This document shows positions 58,258 to 64,000 of a DNA stretch of 64,000 nt, one piece after another; the stretch's first letter is position 1; every line of letters starts with the position of its first letter. Source of the DNA: Myxococcota bacterium (GTDB lineage: Bacteria > Myxococcota_A > UBA9042 > PHBI01 > JAWLBL01); assembly GCA_041687695.1 (NCBI GenBank), contig JAWLBL010000004.1:279319-343318 (forward strand). Direction: 5' to 3'. A model generated the notes under the pieces. The model saw only the letters and a list, made by a program, of their open reading frames with translations, made no database searches and was not told the origin of the DNA. A program made the position numbers and the translations under genes.

Positions 58258-58458
58258 CGTCGGACCTCCAAACTCCTGGCACACTTCTGGCGCAGCGCCT
58301 GAGATTGCCTGACACTGCTGGAGCACCGCCGGCGCGCGTTCGGCGCCCGGTGGTCTGATGCGTCGTTCGGCTCGACCCCAACCATGCGCACGCTCGGGTC
58401 GCGCGTCACGTCGGCGCGCCGCTCCCGTCCCATTCCCCAGCCGAAAGGCGACTCGCCG

Positions 58459-59076
58459 ATGAGCGACGATCCCCGCCGTTTCGCTGCGGCCACCGACCGC
58501 AACCGAGAGCCCATCCTGGCCGTGCTCGAGCGCGTGCTGCCCGAGCAGGGCTTCATCCTCGAGGTCGCCAGCGGTACCGGCCAGCACGCCGCCTACTTCG
58601 CCAGCCGGCTGTACGATCAGACGTGGCAGCCGAGCGACCCCGACCCCGAGCTGCGCGACAGCATCGACGCCTGGCGCGACGACGCGGGCATCGACAACCT
58701 CCTGCCGGCCATCGATCTCGACGTGACCTGGCCCGAGTGGCCGGTGACCCGCGCCGACGCCATCGTCGCCATCAACATGCTGCACATCGCGCCGTGGGAG
58801 GTCTGCCACGGCCTGATGCGCGGCGCCGCCCGCCTGCTCGCGCCCGGGGCCCCGCTCGTCCTGTACGGCCCCTTCAAGGTCGCGGGACACCACACGTCGC
58901 CGGGCAACGCCGAGTTCGACCGCGAGCTGCGCGACCGCAACCGCGCCTTCGGCATCCGCGACCTCGACGAGGTCCGGCAGGTCGCGCAGGCGAGCGGGCT
59001 GCGCCTCGACGAGACGATCGCCATGCCCGCCAACAACCTGACGCTCGTGTTCCGCAGAGAGGGCGAGCCCGCGTAA
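58459..59076 (+). CDS. DUF938 family SAM-dependent methyltransferase
   Basis: RNREPIL, LEVASGTGQHA, WQPSD, YGPF, FD..LR and MPANN motifs. Confidence 0.92.
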   Translation: MSDDPRRFAAATDRNREPILAVLERVLPEQGFILEVASGTGQHAAYFASRLYDQTWQPSDPDPELRDSIDAWRDDAGIDNLLPAIDLDVTWPEWPVTRADAIVAINMLHIAPWEVCHGLMRGAARLLAPGAPLVLYGPFKVAGHHTSPGNAEFDRELRDRNRAFGIRDLDEVRQVAQASGLRLDETIAMPANNLTLVFRREGEPA

Positions 59077-59098
59077 CCCCGCGGCCCGGAGCCCCCCG

Positions 59099-59986
59099 AT
59101 GCCCCAACCCACGCGCACCGCGCTGGCCGCGCTGGCGCTGGTCCATGCCGCCTGCGCCAGCTTCCCCGAGCGCGTCACCGACGAGCAGGCCCCCCTCGTG
59201 TGGGACCCGGCCTACCGCTCCGTCGACGAGGGCGAGCTGGTCGTCACCGGCGCCGCCACGGCCGCCGCCGGCATCGCCGCCCTGTTCCGCTCACGCAGCG
59301 CCCACTGGCGCGGCGGCGTGCTCTTCGACGACTGGGTCCGCGCCCAGGCGCGCACCGACGACCCCGCGACCCACGGCGGCACCGTGTTCACGGCCGACCT
59401 GCTCGCCGGCGTAGTCAGCGCCTATCCGCTGGTGGTCGACTCGCTGATCGTCGCCTGGTGGAAGGAGGACAGCCCCGAGGTCGCCTGGAACACCGCCGTC
59501 ATCACGGCCCAGTCGATGGCCCTGGCCGGCGCCGTCGCCGTCGGGCTGCAAGCGCTGACCCGCCGCGAGCAGCCCTGGGTGCGCCAGTGCCGCGCCGGCT
59601 TCGAGCCACCTGGGACCGACTGCGAGGACCCGCCGCTCGCCGACGCCTTCATCGGCTTCCAGGGGACCGTCGCGTTCGCCGCGGCCGGCGCGCTGTGCGC
59701 CCACCACGAGGCGACGCCCCTGTACGGCGGCGGCTCGCCCGATCGCTTCGTCTGCCTGGCCGCGCTGCTCGGCGCGACCCTCGCCAGCGGCCTCGAGCTC
59801 ATCCCGGACCGCAAATACGCGACCGACTTCCTGGCCGAGGCGGCCGTCGGCCTGGGGCTCGGCTACCTGCTCCCCTACCTGCTCTACTACGACACCCCGG
59901 CCGCCGCGGCGCAGCCGCCCACGGGCATGCTGGTGCCCCTGCCGATGGGCGACGGCGGCGGCGTGGGCTGGGTCCAGACTTTTTGA
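59099..59986 (+). CDS. PAP2-like membrane protein with degenerate catalytic motifs
   Basis: TM layout, R.RP-like RREQP followed by a Cys loop, LCAHH, and YATD..A; catalytic residues altered. Confidence 0.55.
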   Translation: MPQPTRTALAALALVHAACASFPERVTDEQAPLVWDPAYRSVDEGELVVTGAATAAAGIAALFRSRSAHWRGGVLFDDWVRAQARTDDPATHGGTVFTADLLAGVVSAYPLVVDSLIVAWWKEDSPEVAWNTAVITAQSMALAGAVAVGLQALTRREQPWVRQCRAGFEPPGTDCEDPPLADAFIGFQGTVAFAAAGALCAHHEATPLYGGGSPDRFVCLAALLGATLASGLELIPDRKYATDFLAEAAVGLGLGYLLPYLLYYDTPAAAAQPPTGMLVPLPMGDGGGVGWVQTF

Positions 59987-60063
59987 GCGGCGCCCCCGAA
60001 TGCGACCGCGCTTGCGGTCGTCTGCTGCCTTGCGCTAGTGGGTAGCGCACACGGAGGTGGCGA

Positions 60064-60966
60064 ATGCGGGTGATGGCGCTTTCGGTGTTGGCGCTGGTGC
60101 TTGGGACGGGCTGCAGCGACGGCTTCGGCGGGCTGCTCATCTCGAACGCGCGCGAGGTGCAGATCGGCGAGGGCGTCGACCAGCAGATCGAGGCCGAGTA
60201 CCCGATCGTCGACGCCGCGGACCCGGTCGCGCAGTGGGCGGTGCAGTTCATCTCGCCCCTGGTGCAGGGCTCCCGGCCCTTCCGCGACCCCGACCTCATC
60301 GGCGGCTACAAGATCGAGATCATCGCCGACGACGAGCTGGTCAACGCCTTCGCGGCGCCGGGCGGCTTCACCTACATCACGACGGGCCTGCTGCTCGCCG
60401 CCGACACCTGCGCCGAGATCGCTGGCGTCATGGGCCACGAGCTGGCCCACGTGACCGAGCGCCACGGCGTCAAGGACATCGAGGCGGCCTTCGCGGCCGA
60501 GCAGCTCGCCTCCTTCTTCCTCGACGAGGGCCTCGCCCGCGACGGCGCCGTCGCCATCTGGGCGCTCCTCCAGAACACCACCTTCAGCCAGGACGACGAG
60601 AGCGAGAGCGACCTCGTCGGCCTCCAGATCGCCTTCAACGCCGGCTACAACCCCCACGGCCTCGCGGACTTCTTCGCCAAGCTCGCGGCCCTCGAGGCCG
60701 CCTCGGGCACCTTCCTGCCCGAGTTCCTCTCCTCGCACCCCTCCAGCCAGTCCCGCGTCACCGACGTCCGCGCCGAGATCCAGCGCCGCTACGGCGACCA
60801 GGTGGTCCAGGACCAGTCACAGTCCTACGACTGCCTCGGCACGGGCCTCACCCTCGAGCAGGTCAAGGCCCACATCCAGGGCGGCAACATGGTCATCCGC
60901 CCCGGCACGGGCACGGGCGTGGTGCCGGGCGAGACGCCCGAAGGGGAGCAGCCGCGGGAGGGGTGA
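60064..60966 (+). CDS. M48 family metallopeptidase lipoprotein (BepA/LoiP-like)
   Basis: Lipobox LGTGC; NAFAAPGG, HELAH, E.ESD..G and SSHP motifs. Confidence 0.92.
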   Translation: MRVMALSVLALVLGTGCSDGFGGLLISNAREVQIGEGVDQQIEAEYPIVDAADPVAQWAVQFISPLVQGSRPFRDPDLIGGYKIEIIADDELVNAFAAPGGFTYITTGLLLAADTCAEIAGVMGHELAHVTERHGVKDIEAAFAAEQLASFFLDEGLARDGAVAIWALLQNTTFSQDDESESDLVGLQIAFNAGYNPHGLADFFAKLAALEAASGTFLPEFLSSHPSSQSRVTDVRAEIQRRYGDQVVQDQSQSYDCLGTGLTLEQVKAHIQGGNMVIRPGTGTGVVPGETPEGEQPREG

Positions 60967-61116
60967 GAGGGGTTGGGGAGAGGGGCTGGGGAGAGGGGAG
61001 AGGGTAGACCCGACCCGGCGTCGCCGACGCACCGCGAGAGGCGTGAGCCCCGCCGGACCGGGTCTGGAGCGTCAAGGGCTGGGGAGAGGGGCGAGGGTAG
61101 GAGCTGGGGAGAGGGC
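60962..61116 (+). repeat. Purine/G-rich tract with 4 copies of TGGGGAGAGGG
   Basis: Copies near 60974, 60987, 61080 and 61105, around a GC stem-loop (approx. 61006-61065). Confidence 0.7.
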
Positions 61117-61120
61117 AGGC

Positions 61121-61311
61121 GCGGTAGCCTCCGCTTCGGCCGGCCTCAAGGGCTTTGTCCCCCTTGGCCGGCCTGGTCGGCCGGCCAATTCCTCGCGGAC
61201 GACAAAGCCCTTGACCCCGGCCTACGCTGCGGCTGGGTGGCCAATATCGGCCCGGAAGGGGGCCTTCCGGGCCGCTTCGCGTCCCGGCGCGGGAGTGGGC
61301 GGCGGGTGCTG
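61121..61311 (+). ncRNA. Candidate structured RNA/ssDNA element, left copy
   Basis: Several stems, three of which covary relative to the right copy. Confidence 0.5.
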
Positions 61312-61399
61312 GGGGAGGCGGCGGGTCGGGGGGCCCGTGAGCCAGTCGCAGGTAGTCGCGAAGTCTGGCCACAGGACGGGATTTAAACGCTTGTGTAAT

Positions 61400-61638
61400 T
61401 AGTCGTCCCGGGCCGAAAGCGCGCAGGTCGCCGTTCCGGGGCGGAAGCAGGCAGGTCGTCGTCCCGGGGCGGAAGCAGGCAGGTCGTCGTCCCGGGGCGG
61501 AAGCAGGCAGGTCGTCGTCCCGGGGCGGAAGCGCGCAGGTCGTCGTCCCGGGGCGGAAGCGCGCGGATCGTTGTCCTGGGGCGAAAGCCGGTCGTCGTCC
61601 CGGGGCGGAAGCGGGCAGGTCGTCGTCCCCGGGCGGAC
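61400..61638 (+). repeat. Left tandem array, approx. 9 units (mostly 28 bp) of core GGTCGTCGTCCCGGGGCGGA
   Basis: Unit starts at 61426, 61454, 61482, 61510, 61538, 61566, 61590 and 61618, plus a partial unit at approx. 61400. Confidence 0.93.
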
Positions 61639-61857
61639 GTCGGGGCGAAAATCGACATCCGGTCTCGACGAGGATGCAAATAGTTGTTGACGGATTTCGG
61701 GGAGACGTTTTGGGCGATCCAGGGTCGGCTGGAGGGAGGGCCTGGGAGGCCCCTGCCAGGCTCTACAGCGCGCTGATCAGGGGTGAGGGTCGTCGGAAGT
61801 CGTCCGAGAGGCCTGAACGGCCGTCCTGGGGGTACTCAGAGGGGATGAGAACCCCCG

Positions 61858-61887
61858 TGCTATGCTGCAGGCCTCGATTGGGAGGGG
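61858..61887 (+). promoter_or_regulatory. Putative extended -10 promoter and RBS of the HNH gene
   Basis: TGCTATGCT (61858-61866); GGAGG at 61881, before the ATG at 61894. Confidence 0.4.
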
Positions 61888-61893
61888 TGCGGC

Positions 61894-63048
61894 ATGAGCA
61901 AGGGCTTGGAGTTGCTGGGGAAGTTGTCCGACGAGGGGCTGCTGGGGCGGGTCGGTGAGCTGGTCGATCTGGAGCGACGGACGACGGCCAACCTGGTCGT
62001 CCATCTGGCCGAGGTCGAGGCCAGGGAGCTTCACCTTCGCGACGGCAGCCCGTCGCTGTTCGAGTGGTGCCGGACGCGGTGGGGCTTTGGTGAGGACAAG
62101 GCCTACAACTACGTGAAGGCCGTCGGGTGGGTGCGGCGGTGGCCGCAGATGGGCGCCATGTTGGCCGATGGGCGGATCAGTTTGAGCGGGATGCGGGTCA
62201 TCGGGCCGCATCTGGGCGACGGGAACGTCGACGAGCGGCTGGCCGAGGCCGCCGGCAAGAGCAAGCGGGAGCTGGGCGAGCTGGTGGCCAGGTGGTCGCC
62301 GCGGCCGGATGTGCCGGCGCGGGTGTTCCGGTTGGCGCCGTCCCGGGGCGGAGCGCGTTCCGAGGCGCCGAAGCGGACCGCGTCGCCACAGGCCGAGACC
62401 GAGCTGACCCTGGAGCGCCCGAAGCCGCAGCATCGGGTCGAGCCGTTGTCGGAGGCGCGGTATCGCGTGCAGGTGACGGTCGGTGCGGGGGTGGCGGCGA
62501 AGCTCGAGGAGGCGATGGCGCTGGCGGGCCATCAGGTCGCGTCCGGGGACTATGAGACCTTGTTGGAGATGGCCCTGGACGTCTTCCTGGCCGCGAAGAA
62601 GAAGCAGCGCTTCGGAGTCGGGGCCAAGCGGCGAGTGAAGAAGGTCGTAGTGAAGGCGCCCGAGCCGGCCGAGAGCGTGGCCATGGCGGACCAGTTGGTC
62701 GAGGCCGCGGCGAGCGAGCCGGAGGCGGAGGTGACGGAACGCAGCCGGGCCATCCCGGCCGAGGTCAAGCGGGCCGTGGTCGAGCGGGACGGCCTGCGGT
62801 GCACCTACGAGGGCCCGGGAGGGCGGTGCACCGAGACGCGCCGGCTGGAGCTACATCACGAGGAGGCCTTCGCCAGGGGCGGCGCTCACTCGGTCGACAA
62901 CCTCCGGGTCGTCTGCCAGGCCCACAACCTGCTCGTCGCCCGCCAGGAGCTTGGGGCCCGGTTCGTCGCACGCAAAGTAGCCGAGCGGCGGGCGGGGGCC
63001 GTTCCGCCCCGGGACGAAAGCCCGCTCGGGCAAGCAGCTCGTGGGTGA
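61894..63048 (+). CDS. HNH endonuclease with DUF222-like N-terminal region
   Basis: N-terminal LSD..LL...ER..TA.L..HLAEVE.R.L...G..SLF.WC; C-terminal R.IPA.VKR.V.ERDG.RC...RC...LELHH...GG.....NL...C..HN. Confidence 0.88.
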   Translation: MSKGLELLGKLSDEGLLGRVGELVDLERRTTANLVVHLAEVEARELHLRDGSPSLFEWCRTRWGFGEDKAYNYVKAVGWVRRWPQMGAMLADGRISLSGMRVIGPHLGDGNVDERLAEAAGKSKRELGELVARWSPRPDVPARVFRLAPSRGGARSEAPKRTASPQAETELTLERPKPQHRVEPLSEARYRVQVTVGAGVAAKLEEAMALAGHQVASGDYETLLEMALDVFLAAKKKQRFGVGAKRRVKKVVVKAPEPAESVAMADQLVEAAASEPEAEVTERSRAIPAEVKRAVVERDGLRCTYEGPGGRCTETRRLELHHEEAFARGGAHSVDNLRVVCQAHNLLVARQELGARFVARKVAERRAGAVPPRDESPLGQAARG

Positions 63049-63050
63049 CC

Positions 63051-63463
63051 TCCGCCCCGGGACGACGACCTGCGCGCTTCCGCCCCGGGACGACGACCTG
63101 CGCGCTTCCGTCCCGGGACGACGACCTGCGCGCATCCGCCCCGGGACGACGACCTGCGCGCTTCCGCCCCGGGACGACGACCGGCTTCCGCCCCGGGACG
63201 ACGACCGGCGCGCTTCCGCCTCGGGACGACGACCGGCCTCCGCCCCGGGACGACGACCGGCTTTCGCCCGGGACGACGAACTGGGCTTCCGCCCCGGGAC
63301 GACGACCCGCTTCCGCCCCGGGACGACGACCTGCGCGCTTCCGCCCCGGGACGACGACCTGCGCGCTTCCGCCCCGGGACGACGACCTGGGCTCTCCGCC
63401 CCGGGACGACGACCTGGGCTCTCCGCCCCGGGACGACGACCTGGGCTCTCCGCCCCGGGGCGA
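63051..63463 (-). repeat. Right tandem array, approx. 15.5 units of the same 20-bp core, inverted
   Basis: TCCGCCCCGGGACGACGACC plus 4-8 bp linkers (TGCGCGCT, GGCT, TGGGCTC). Confidence 0.95.
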
Positions 63464-63549
63464 TTAATTGTTCGATCGTTAAATTACCTCCTGCTGCCAG
63501 CCTACGCGACCACGCCCGGCGGCTGGGATGCCCGACCACCCGCCCGCCT

Positions 63550-63739
63550 CAGCACCCGCCGCCCAGTGCCCGCGCCGGGACGCGAAGCGGCCCGGACGCC
63601 CCCGTCCGGGCCGATATCGGCCGCCCAGCCGCAGCGAAGGCCGGGGTCAAGGGCTTTCTCGTCCGCGAGGAATTGGCCGACCGCCAGGTCGGCCAAGGGG
63701 GAGAAAGCCCTTGAGGCCGGCCGAAGCGGAGGCTACCGC
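63550..63739 (-). ncRNA. Candidate structured RNA/ssDNA element, right copy
   Basis: Reverse complement of 61121-61311 with compensatory substitutions. Confidence 0.5.
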
Positions 63740-63752
63740 ATGGCACCTTCTT

Positions 63753-63860
63753 CACCCCCATCCCCACCCCCATCCCCACCCCCATCCCCACCCCCATCCC
63801 CACCCCCATCCCCACCCCCATCCCCACCCCCATCCCCATCCCCACCCCCGTCCCCACCCA
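63753..63860 (-). repeat. 12-bp G-rich minisatellite (GGGATGGGGGTG)n
   Basis: Seven perfect CACCCCCATCCC units at 63753-63836, then degenerate copies; the C-rich tract continues to the window end. Confidence 0.92.
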
Positions 63861-64000
63861 GCCCCCACCCCCCGTCCCCAACCGAGCCAAGCTCTCGGCC
63901 TCCCCCATCCCCACCCACCCCCCACACCCCAGCTCCCAACGAGCCACGCTCTCGGCCGACCCACCTCCCACCCCCACCCCCACCACCCACACCCCCGCTC

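Follow-up and report, generated by a model that had tools for sequence, protein, structure and literature searches.

The 64,000-nucleotide window analysed here belongs to an 8-Mb Myxococcota genome (G000) and contains a single HNH nuclease gene enclosed by two mirrored, composite ends. This arrangement raises the question of whether gene and ends form one mobile unit and, if so, by which means such a unit could spread. DUF222-HNH genes, the type to which the initial annotation had related this gene, are among the commonest unexplained multicopy genes of high-GC bacteria. To our knowledge, no cis-acting sites, ends or mechanism have been described for them.

The 384-aa HNH gene (ORF 61894-63048) was indeed found between two colinear inverted arms, in a unit covering positions 61121-63739 of the window. 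The left arm (61121-61430) aligns colinearly with the reverse complement of 63435-63739. Reading inward from GCGGTAGCC, the alignment consists of ~195 nt of near-identical sequence, ~75 nt of looser similarity, a common AT-rich motif (ATTTAAACG...AATTA) and the arrays; at GCGGTAGCC the similarity ends sharply, both on the left and on the right. The arms are about 87-93% identical. In the repeat search, the outer modules (hereafter END) appeared as inverted arms of 56 nt (96%) and 111 nt (85%), and the arrays gave inverted matches of up to 135 nt at 92%. An assembly artefact was rejected: the arms differ in sequence, and the design is seen again on many contigs and in a second genome (G011). 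The features of the locus are as follows.

60957..61118, plus strand: G-rich minisatellite flank, blocks 60957-61007 and 61076-61118, units such as GAGAGGGGCTGGG; outside the conserved element
61121..61295, plus strand: left END, a long bulged hairpin with a three-way junction, plus a short hairpin; outer terminus GCGGTAGCC
61296..61382, plus strand: left spacer, looser and G-rich, from END to the AT-rich motif; lower-identity alignment to the right arm
61383..61403, plus strand: left AT-rich motif (GATTTAAACGCTTGTGTAATTAG), immediately preceding the left array
61402..61650, plus strand: left array, 8.6 units of 28 bp, core GTCGTCCCGGGGCGGAAGC, an oriented 'XY' quasi-palindrome
61651..61893, plus strand: conserved leader, 243 bp; ribosome-binding site GGGAGG, 8 nt upstream of the start codon
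61894..63048, plus strand: HNH nuclease gene, 384 aa, ATG start
63049..63463, minus strand: right array, 15.5 units, core as in the left array, inverted; unit 1 begins 7 nt past the stop codon
63464..63490, minus strand: right AT-rich motif, from sequence and arm alignment
63491..63564, minus strand: right spacer, looser, from arm alignment
63565..63739, minus strand: right END, inverted copy of the left END
63753..64000, minus strand: C-rich minisatellite flank, G-rich when read on the minus strand, built of unit CACCCCCATCCC and reaching the end of the contig

The array period and the unit counts were obtained with Tandem Repeats Finder, which placed the arrays at 61402-61637 and 63051-63463, and an extra copy of the right-array core overlaps the last codons of the gene (63002-63020). 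AT-rich motifs comparable to those of the window were present in other copies and in G011. Because the window stops at the end of the contig, the right flank is incomplete.

The HNH gene is the only gene-sized conserved ORF of the element. In agreement with the initial annotation, the ORFs and Pfam revealed no DDE, HUH or serine/tyrosine transposase, recombinase or cas gene inside it. A sigma-70 scan of the leader gave no promoter-like site. The absence of a visible target-site duplication was likewise corroborated at the junctions of the window copy (flanks ...GGGCAGGC / element / ATGGCACC...). No direct repeat was found at the junctions of two gene-less units on contigs C27 and C7 either, though G-rich minisatellites could mask short duplications at any of these junctions. 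The gene had also been described as richer in T-ending codons than its neighbours, which is marginally right: such codons make up 6.0% of the gene and 1.0-3.5% of five genes nearby. The gene departs further from the rest of the genome in G3 and C3, with G3 56% and C3 34% in the gene and C3 55% and G3 40% genome-wide.

The genome carries 22 paralogous HNH loci with 57-87% identity. END, array and the 243-bp leader (21 blastn matches) precede nearly all of them, and the order END-array-leader-gene is constant among the mapped loci. The ends are dispersed repeats, yet closely bound to HNH genes. At least five copies are two-ended, namely the window copy, C6:74790-77988, C11:165323-167987, C22:25759-27749 and C33:12448-14955. 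About ten copies of one protein subfamily (A, see below) are one-ended and consist of END, array, leader and gene, followed by one palindrome and then by unrelated DNA; the right arm is thus dispensable for persistence. Two gene-less END-array-END' units were located at C27:85544-86547 and C7:201564-202473, and solo and clustered ENDs occur at C3:293015-295046 and on C26 and C47. The gene-less units were considered as clean deletions of leader and gene, an explanation that was not retained: only the ENDs and the array motifs are common with the filled copies, and the relation is unreadable.

All copies are chromosomal and intergenic, in unrelated insertion regions, and the DNA beyond END is unique to each copy except for low-complexity sequence. 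A tblastn search of 72,556 plasmid records gave no match at E up to 1e-10. In at least eight copies the right array begins 4-60 nt past the stop codon, which shows that gene and array are inherited as one unit. The distances between ENDs and those between genes are correlated (Mantel r 0.60, a value reached in 1 of 5000 permutations), END variants follow the HNH clades, and END is more conserved than the gene. The idea that the two ENDs of an element are sister sequences was rejected, as for most of them the nearest relative is not the END on the opposite side.

The copies are old, the smallest dS being 0.23, and none is near-identical to another; young copies could be hidden as collapsed repeats at contig ends. 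A median dN/dS of 0.31 over 91 pairs of copies revealed purifying selection. One synteny test, at the C22 copy, was carried out in the search for an empty-site allele, and none was found. In 20 relatives its left neighbour had no match at E up to 1e-20 and its right neighbour was matched in 8, so that adjacency is not judgeable for want of a left orthologue. The genome of the window is the only member of its family among the genomes compared.

END is a hairpin module of ~175 nt with a three-way junction spanning alignment columns 5-117, and its folding z-scores range from -3.4 to -7.2. Over 28 copies, the 53 pairs of the fold were 98.4% paired, compared with 27-51% in slid controls. Six pairs were altered on both sides versus 2.8 in shuffles, and none of 500 shuffles reached six; the fold is maintained via compensatory changes. 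END is not a known RNA, as no Rfam family matched at E up to 1 besides two chance miRNA rows. By blastn it was absent from 40 relatives, bar one 46-nt match at chance level. A 28-nt END pattern gave 0 matches in public genome and metagenome contigs, a set from which records of its own or a very near genome were possibly excluded.

The array cores are palindromes or quasi-palindromes centred on CCCGGG, and the type of core varies together with the protein subfamily. In subfamily A, GTCCCGGGGCGG was found upstream in 15/15 copies, and in 14/14 copies the upstream CCCGGG closest to the gene is located at -256 to -306. In subfamily B, the perfect palindrome GTCCCGGGAC was present in 7/7 copies. 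Perfect CCCGGG-centred palindromes are concentrated in the elements, with 75 in 64 kb of element DNA versus 58 in the remaining 7.9 Mb. The site bound by Noc is a 14-bp palindrome centred on CCCGGG (PMC7383237).

The encoded protein was divided into four regions.

Residues 1-136: N-domain, distant DUF222, predicted ParB/Noc-like fold
Residues ~137-185: disordered linker
Residues ~190-241: ribbon-helix-helix-like (RHH) domain
Residues ~275-370: HNH domain

In Pfam the window protein gave weak matches only (HNH, RHH_5 and colicin-DNase-type). Its HNH domain scored E 0.0028 and 18.2 bits, below the cut-off of 21.4, while Pfam HNH matches 20 of 26 family members. Across 26 relatives and 14 paralogues, no change occurs at the Zn/catalytic residues C303, C312, H322, C341, H344 and N345. 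Structural matches of this domain were McrA, GVE2 and IscB (Z 7-7.8), and its nearest named relatives are the HNH domains of IscB and Cas9. The NCBIfam model guided_IscB was matched with E 2.8e-7, in its HNH part only (profile 177-242), at 30 bits against a cut-off of 175.

The DUF222 assignment of the initial annotation held only as a remote homology. With DUF222 (PF02720), 12 of 23 N-domains of the family gave a match at E up to 1 (best E 1e-7), and so did 2 of 26 members taken at full length at E up to 0.01, but the N-domain of the window itself (residues 26-136, profile 10-120) stays below the Pfam cut-off, with E 0.044 and 13.5 bits versus 24.4. The closest structures to the N-domain were the DNA-binding domains of ParB, KorB, Spo0J and Noc. 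In structural comparison by VIA-align 2, it resembled 6s6h (Z 7.2, rmsd 2.9 over 95 residues), KorB (Z 7.2 and 6.4) and Spo0J (Z 6.2), and the middle domain resembled RHH proteins at Z 4.3-5.3; for helical folds, Z values below 8 are possibly due to chance. With a model of the N-domain only (pLDDT 94), the top eight Foldseek rows were ParB/Noc, but with E about 1 and TM 0.47-0.55. On these middling structural scores, with no sequence match, the N-domain reads as ParB/Noc-like and the middle domain as RHH. The N-terminal CTPase (ParB/Srx) domain of ParB is absent: there was no Pfam ParBc match, and the structural match starts at residue 26 and is confined to the DNA-binding part of ParB chains.

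Homologues were sought in other genomes. Family members occur in 8 of 151 sampled genomes of the phylum and in 7 of 41 relatives (the window's own genome counted in both), and the distribution is patchy and multicopy; nine homologous HNH genes were found in G011, nine matches in G068 and 11 in G151. Eight of the nine genes of G011 are enclosed by an inverted pair of ~220-nt hairpin repeats, unrelated to END, which show compensatory changes. These repeats are accompanied by CCCCGGGG palindromes, and ACAGTCCCCGGGGACTGT palindromes lie outside. All 17 full-length arms of G011 stand beside the nine HNH genes, and there are no solo arms. Of nine other genomes sampled, only two, G011 and G068 (89 bp), were found to have long inverted repeats at homologues; the other homologue loci showed at most 17-20-bp palindromes. 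G011 is a recurrence of the enclosed design in another lineage and an independent replicate. Together with the five two-ended copies described above, it bears out the expectation that homologous HNH genes repeatedly carry inverted ends.

We consider it somewhat better than an even chance that the locus belongs to a multicopy selfish family, as one of its intact copies with both ends; the nuclease would bind the arrays around its gene and cut at or near the structured ends, and host repair would spread the unit. In such a cycle the HNH protein would bind, probably as dimers, the CCCGGG-centred (quasi-)palindromes in the arrays on either side of its own gene, and many nuclease copies would be loaded per arm. 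The ~175-nt END modules are the conserved outer boundaries, retained as structures, and at or near them the nuclease would cut or nick. The recombination or repair systems of the host would next copy the unit or insert it again, much as in homing or by cutting and repair, and no target-site duplication would arise. The gene-less END-array-END' copies would be non-autonomous, with protein from other copies acting on them in trans. The anatomy, the copy number, the linkage of ends, arrays and gene, the conserved structure of END, the co-variation of sites with protein subfamily, the purifying selection and the recurrence in another lineage are observed, whereas DNA binding by the N-domain or the RHH domain, the cleavage position and the whole course of movement are inferred. 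The proposal of the initial annotation, a mobile or self-propagating element that uses the HNH protein and its ends, is supported to this extent, and the outcomes it had named against itself were absent, but neither an empty site nor near-identical copies were found. The age of the copies, the purifying selection and the higher conservation of END than of the gene would also fit a function kept by the host. The one-ended copies, the left and right ENDs that are mostly not sisters and the scarcity of long inverted repeats at homologues in other genomes likewise count against the selfish reading.

The locus could instead combine two unrelated neighbours: an autoregulated HNH gene family with operator repeats, and an independent END of REP/REPIN type moved by a Y1 (RAYT-like) transposase. 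The RHH domain or a helix-turn-helix would then be the gene's own repressor, the family would perhaps be a defence or toxin-like nuclease spread by duplication, and END would tend to land beside the gene. REPs have a GTAG head followed by a hairpin, and END begins with GGTAGCC and continues into a long hairpin. The existence of solo and clustered ENDs, the many copies that retain the upstream arm only and the old copies under purifying selection fit this explanation as well, and the genome holds Y1_Tnp matches. However, none of these 11 matches, 10 of them over the cut-off, lies within 15 kb of a mapped END on the same contig. The co-divergence of END with the gene, its variants tracking the HNH clades, and the right array inherited together with the gene speak against independent neighbours, and both ENDs and the arrays stay together even in the gene-less units. 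In addition, G011 repeats the enclosed design with hairpin repeats of unrelated sequence, and the anti-phage defence models of PADLOC gave no match for the HNH protein. Taking both sides into account, we regard two separate neighbours as unlikely.

Two further explanations assign another role to the ends. END might be a structured RNA partner of the HNH protein, which would then be a minimal, RuvC-less relative of IscB, with an omega-RNA-like molecule transcribed inward and a guide perhaps derived from the flank. This would agree with the kinship of the HNH domain to those of IscB and Cas9 and with a branched, covarying module that precedes the gene on its sense strand. It would also agree with the non-Watson-Crick pairs, as G-U pairs outnumber A-C pairs 26 to 6 on the inward-reading strand; this bias is possibly mutational, the END copies are not independent, and both strands of END fold equally well as DNA. 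The lack of a RuvC domain, the guided_IscB match confined to the HNH part, the two predicted domains of double-strand-DNA-binding type with their obvious DNA sites, and the failure to find an Rfam match, a promoter-like site or END itself in 40 relatives make an RNA partner quite improbable. The arms could also be viral-like inverted terminal repeats of an excised linear or hairpin-ended replicon, copied by rolling-hairpin or terminal priming, with the HNH protein as site-specific nickase and the arrays as binding repeats. A branched terminal hairpin does adjoin tandem repeats of binding type and the gene of a nuclease. In 5/5 two-ended copies the GC skew is mirrored, with a sign switch at the 3' end of the gene, and the outermost 27-45 nt of END are partially duplicated at five ends. 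Yet genes for a polymerase, a primase or an HUH Rep are all missing from the element, every copy is chromosomal and intergenic, and the plasmid records gave no match; a replicon of this kind is given hardly any credence.

A selfish family driven by its own nuclease would share features with several described systems. The closest is REP13E12 of mycobacteria. Like the present element, it consists of dispersed multicopy units, together spanning about 1.3-2.6 kb in size, each with a single protein that begins with a helical domain of DUF222 type and ends with an HNH domain. We rate the element family as a variant of these DUF222-HNH (REP13E12-type) repeats, although the window protein is below the Pfam cut-offs for both domains. 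Such repeats are classed among 'other repetitive elements' in one paper (PMC10589994). Composite inverted hairpin ends, palindrome arrays and gene-less derivatives of REP13E12 were not found described in the literature outside subscription journals. REP/REPIN-RAYT systems resemble the element in their hairpins with GTAG-type heads, their many copies, the doublets forming long hairpins, the gene between inverted copies and the lack of target-site duplication, but here the enclosed gene encodes an HNH nuclease and not a Y1 transposase, no END is near a Y1_Tnp match, and END is about 175 nt long and accompanied by 28-bp arrays. In IscB/OMEGA (HEARO) loci the HNH domain comes from the same clade, the gene is preceded by a structured element of ~175-200 nt, and the loci are multicopy in the manner of IS; the present element differs in having no RuvC, bridge helix, IS200/605 TnpA context or Rfam match, and carries predicted ParB-like and RHH domains instead.

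The ParB/Noc/KorB and RHH centromere-binding proteins are similar in predicted fold and in their palindromic sites in tandem arrays, those of Noc being centred on CCCGGG. In contrast to them, the window protein has neither a ParB CTPase domain nor a ParA partner and includes a nuclease domain in the same chain, and about 22 chromosomal copies have its arrays inverted on the two sides of the gene that encodes it. Free-standing HNH homing endonucleases are likewise single selfish nuclease genes, possibly copied after a break without target-site duplication, but homing genes are not known to have structured terminal repeats or binding arrays of their own and have one conserved target, whereas the sites here are intergenic and unrelated. 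Unlike classical insertion sequences and transposons, the element shows no internal transposase and no target-site duplication.

The DUF222-HNH family is large; a search at E up to 1e-3 gave 15,633 clusters by their representatives. Should movement be driven by the nuclease without a transposase, this would be a new class among prokaryotic mobile DNA, and the protein would offer a compact, sequence-programmable DNA-binding nuclease scaffold. G000 and, independently, G011 display the full cis apparatus of hairpin ends, co-varying site arrays and gene-less derivatives, which makes the multicopy question experimentally approachable. The architecture had no prior description in the literature search, which covered journals outside subscription. 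It is possible, though we find it rather doubtful, that the elements are the first anatomically resolved case of a class of transposase-less bacterial mobile elements, which would supply the large DUF222-HNH (REP13E12-type) superfamily with a mechanism, and in which a ParB-like/RHH-HNH protein acts on its own palindrome arrays between branched hairpin ends, with non-autonomous derivatives, and in which the minisatellites are scars of break and repair.

The G-rich tracts that make up these minisatellites could have been ordinary features of gene 3' ends, mirrored between convergent genes; this found no support, as tracts 3' of same-strand genes were not the commonest class when genes were called by a rough method based on GC3, which covered 65% of the genome. 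Genome-wide, tracts with 62% G or more lie within 150 bp of 18 of 43 END termini, and the G strand reads inward in 18/18.

The HNH gene that the initial annotation had placed between composite inverted ends was found in the last 3 kb of the window, and the left arm (61121 inward) aligned colinearly with the reverse complement of the right arm (63739 inward). Reading inward from GCGGTAGCC, each arm consists of about 195 nt of near-identical sequence, about 75 nt of looser similarity, a common AT-rich motif and a tandem array. In both arms the similarity breaks off precisely at GCGGTAGCC and, as had been noted, no target-site duplication was seen at either of these boundaries. Since the window stops at the end of contig C4, the right flank of this copy is incomplete. 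A repeat search of the window detected inverted arms in the ENDs, the hairpin modules of about 175 nt that form the outer boundaries (56 nt at 96%, 111 nt at 85%), and in the arrays (up to 135 nt at 92%).

Parts of the window copy (61121-63739) and its edges
60957-61118, minisatellite just outside the left END, whose G-rich strand reads towards the element
61402-61637, left array, 8.6 copies with a 28-bp period (Tandem Repeats Finder)
61894-63048 (+), HNH gene, ATG start, 384 aa
63051-63463, right array in the opposite orientation, 15.5 copies with a 28-bp period (Tandem Repeats Finder)
63753-64000, minisatellite just outside the right END, whose G-rich strand reads towards the element

The array core also occurs twice inside the HNH ORF, at 62336-62352 (disordered linker, PSRGGA codons) and at 63002-63020 (last codons). 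Three same-strand ORFs of 230, 295 and 300 aa (58384-60966) terminate right at the left G-rich tract.

The genome of the window (7.97 Mb, 63 contigs, 99.3% complete) was found to contain 22 loci with HNH paralogues of 57-87% identity. A blastn map of the element pieces gave a constant order of END, array, 243-bp leader and gene. Several further copies, beyond the two-ended set, are interrupted by contig ends, and six ENDs lie at contig ends. About ten copies of subfamily A, one of two clades of these HNH proteins, are one-ended, with a single palindrome after the gene followed by unrelated DNA. The gene-less units have only the ENDs and the array motifs in common with the filled copies. The elements checked were intergenic according to a crude gene caller.

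Elements in the genome of the window (contig:coordinates)
Window copy, two-ended
C6:74790-77988, two-ended copy
C11:165323-167987, two-ended copy
C22:25759-27749, two-ended copy
C33:12448-14955, two-ended copy
C27:85544-86547 and C7:201564-202473, gene-less units of about 0.9-1.0 kb (END, arrays, inverted END)
C3:293015-295046, C26 and C47, solo or clustered ENDs

An alignment of 28 END copies yielded a 53-pair consensus, a long bulged hairpin with a three-way junction plus a short hairpin, in which 98.4% of the cells pair; when the partners were slid by 1-3 columns as a control, pairing was 27-51%. Changes in both partners were present in six pairs (25 cells); the shuffles gave 2.8 such pairs, and none of 500 reached the observed value, a count that is not a probability because the copies are related. 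As DNA both strands fold well (z -6.0 and -7.2), and so does the RNA. The non-Watson-Crick pairs on the inward-reading strand of 39 copies were 26 G-U and 6 A-C, an excess of G-U that could be attributed to selection on one strand or to mutational bias. Conservation is higher in the END than in the gene: distances to the window copy were at most 0.17 for upstream ENDs and reached 0.35 for genes. The distance matrices of END and gene were correlated (17 copies, Mantel r 0.60, reached by 1 of 5000 permutations), and therefore the two travel together. Within a single element, the left END and the right END are in most cases not each other's nearest relatives. No END was found by blastn in 40 relatives, and a 28-nt END pattern gave zero matches in two public contig collections.

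G-rich minisatellites adjoin the outer END edge genome-wide, with a unit that differs from copy to copy. A tract of at least 62% G was present within 150 bp at 18 of 43 END termini, the G strand reading inward in all 18; such tracts total 395 in 8 Mb, and arithmetic on these counts gives a chance expectation below 1 of 43 termini. At five ends the outermost 27-45 nt of the END, plus filler, are partially tandem-duplicated directly outside a full END (C2:186863-186951, C9:2194-2260, C13:387-450, C33:12341-12448 and C3:293017-293117). These edge features may be scars left by repair or slippage where the boundary often breaks or stalls.

The array core is a CCCGGG-centred motif. Subfamily A comprises 15 copies whose proteins are 73-100% identical to that of the window; the oriented unit GTCCCGGGGCGG was found upstream in every one of them, with its inverse downstream in five. 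The perfect palindrome GTCCCGGGAC flanks both sides in all seven copies of subfamily B (57-62% identity), and CCGCCCCGGGGCGG is also used by one divergent copy (C8) and by the gene-less units. Arrays hold from about 2 to 32 units with periods of 21-33 bp. Of the perfect palindromes centred on CCCGGG whose arms are 4 nt or longer, 75 fall within the 64 kb of element DNA and 58 within the other 7.9 Mb. The spacing is fixed: among 14 subfamily-A copies, all have their last upstream CCCGGG 256-306 nt from the ATG, and 12 have a CCCGGG between -50 and +16 relative to the stop codon. PMC7383237 describes a crystallised Noc site, GGATATTTCCCGGGAAATATCC, with a 14-bp core and a CCCGGG-centred palindrome, a precedent for the recognition of such a palindrome by the ParB family.

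In the window protein Pfam reported nothing beyond a sub-threshold HNH, PADLOC returned nothing, and the NCBIfam match was confined to the HNH part of IscB (30 bits versus a cut-off of 175). The protein family comprises 15,633 representative clusters at E ≤1e-3 and 1,589 at E ≤1e-30, the commonest phyla of the nearest clusters being Myxococcota, Acidobacteriota and Bdellovibrionota in an atlas look-up. Three conserved blocks separated by variable linkers were seen in an alignment of 26 members. The AlphaFold model (pLDDT 79.7 overall, above 95 in the N-domain) predicts a helical N-domain (1-136), a strand-helix-helix region (about 190-241) and an HNH domain. Among PDB structures, the N-domain matched the DNA-binding domains of ParB, KorB, Spo0J, Noc and SopB (Z 7.2, 7.2, 6.4, 6.2 and 4.3), the middle region the RHH proteins MazE6, pCXC100 ParB, TraM, NikR and ParD2 (Z 5.3-4.3), and the C-domain McrA, GVE2 HNH, IscB and Gme nicking HNH (Z 7.8-6.4). 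Folded alone (pLDDT 94.1), the N-domain gave ParB/Noc in the top eight Foldseek rows, but with E about 1. Because these structure scores are middling, the fold assignments are taken as probable. PF02720 (DUF222) matched 12 of 23 family N-domains (best E 1e-7; window N-domain 0.044), and on these profile matches the N-domain is probably a distant DUF222.

Fourteen subfamily-A ORFs are intact, with invariant zinc and catalytic residues and a median dN/dS of 0.31 (range 0.17-0.49; dS 0.23-0.67; 91 pairs). Their length varies from 380 to 431 aa owing to in-frame tandem repeats in the linker; repeats of 21 and 30 bp were noted before the HNH domain, about 290-500 nt before the stop (C46:29236-30477, C6:75342-76619). 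In the HNH genes, codons ending in G (56%) outnumber those ending in C (34%), which is not so in the genome as a whole, and their coding strand is unusually G-rich.

Homologues were matched in 7 of 41 relatives at E ≤1e-10 and, in a stricter first look (E ≤1e-20), in 8 of the 151 genomes sampled from the phylum, both counts including the genome of the window; the distribution is patchy and multicopy. In G011, a genome of the same order and a different family (20 contigs), nine HNH genes of about 40% identity were detected, together with 17 full-length arms of about 220 nt, every one beside HNH genes; an inverted arm pair encloses eight of the nine genes. These arms are unrelated to END in sequence, yet they too are rich in hairpins and show compensatory changes. 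Beyond them come an AT-rich motif and, on each side, one to three copies of ACAGTCCCCGGGGACTGT; the G011 ends are without the edge features described for END. Two other genomes, G068 and G090, carry palindromes with an identical CCCCGGGG centre and differing arms at -267, -279 and -289 and at +18, +36 and +42 relative to the gene; in G068 the similarity between copies starts about 280-296 nt before the gene. No such perfect palindrome or long inverted repeat was present in the homologous loci L082-L086, L061, L062, L064, L065 and L070, so the design is recurrent and not universal.

The most likely reading is a selfish element family in which a single nuclease gene is combined with cis-acting parts of its own. 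It is based on the linkage, the co-divergence, the gene-less derivatives, a distribution that is patchy and multicopy, and the recurrence of the design in G011 as an independent replicate. The anatomy and the comparative patterns were observed directly; the most economical mechanism that we infer has three steps. Dimers would bind the palindromes through the ParB-like and/or RHH domains and coat both arms, the HNH domain would nick or cut at or near the structured ends, and host repair would then copy or re-insert the unit without a target-site duplication. A simple active transposon is disfavoured, as neither an empty site nor young copies were found, one-ended copies persist and selection keeps old copies intact. 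Among known kinds, the DUF222-HNH repeat family (REP13E12) of mycobacteria comes nearest; text searches of the literature outside subscription journals found passing mentions of it only, and no description of hairpin ends, palindrome arrays or gene-less derivatives. It is conceivable, although doubtful, that the family represents a new class of mobile elements lacking a transposase.

One rival combines an autoregulated chromosomal nuclease family with a REP-like END that is independent of it and is mobilised by Y1 transposases. This was considered unlikely: the genome has eleven Y1_Tnp (IS200/RAYT-type) matches, on C59, C40, C61, C26, C48, C54, C22, C47, C15 and C53, of which ten exceed the Pfam cut-off, but none is near any END, and the divergence of END parallels that of the HNH gene. 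The HNH clade, the END position and the G-U bias are suggestive of an RNA partner, similar to omega-RNA, for an IscB relative that lacks RuvC. This is quite improbable, given an element without RuvC, Rfam match or promoter-like site and a protein with predicted DNA-binding domains and evident DNA sites. The likeness in form to viral ITRs is striking: the terminal hairpin is branched and adjoins tandem sites and a nuclease gene, and the GC skew is mirrored in all five two-ended copies. The ends of a hairpin-primed replicon are nevertheless the least probable of these readings, neither a replication gene nor a free form being known.

Sequence outward of END is unique, save for low-complexity DNA and one 54-bp tandem repeat (GGGATCGCCGGCTTCCAGCCGGC...) common to three copies (C1:167384-167878, C12:104100-104440 and C3 near 116800). 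Downstream of the HNH copy at C4:117937, two adjoining tandem arrays of 42-bp units (4.3 and 4.8 copies; C4:117000-117860) hold AT-rich palindromes such as GATTCTTCATTGAAGAATC. The copy at C6:93095 keeps its right array, AT-rich motif and spacer (C6:94520-94770), and from the inner boundary of END an 8-bp repeat (CGCCTGTC, 4.1 copies) stands in its place.
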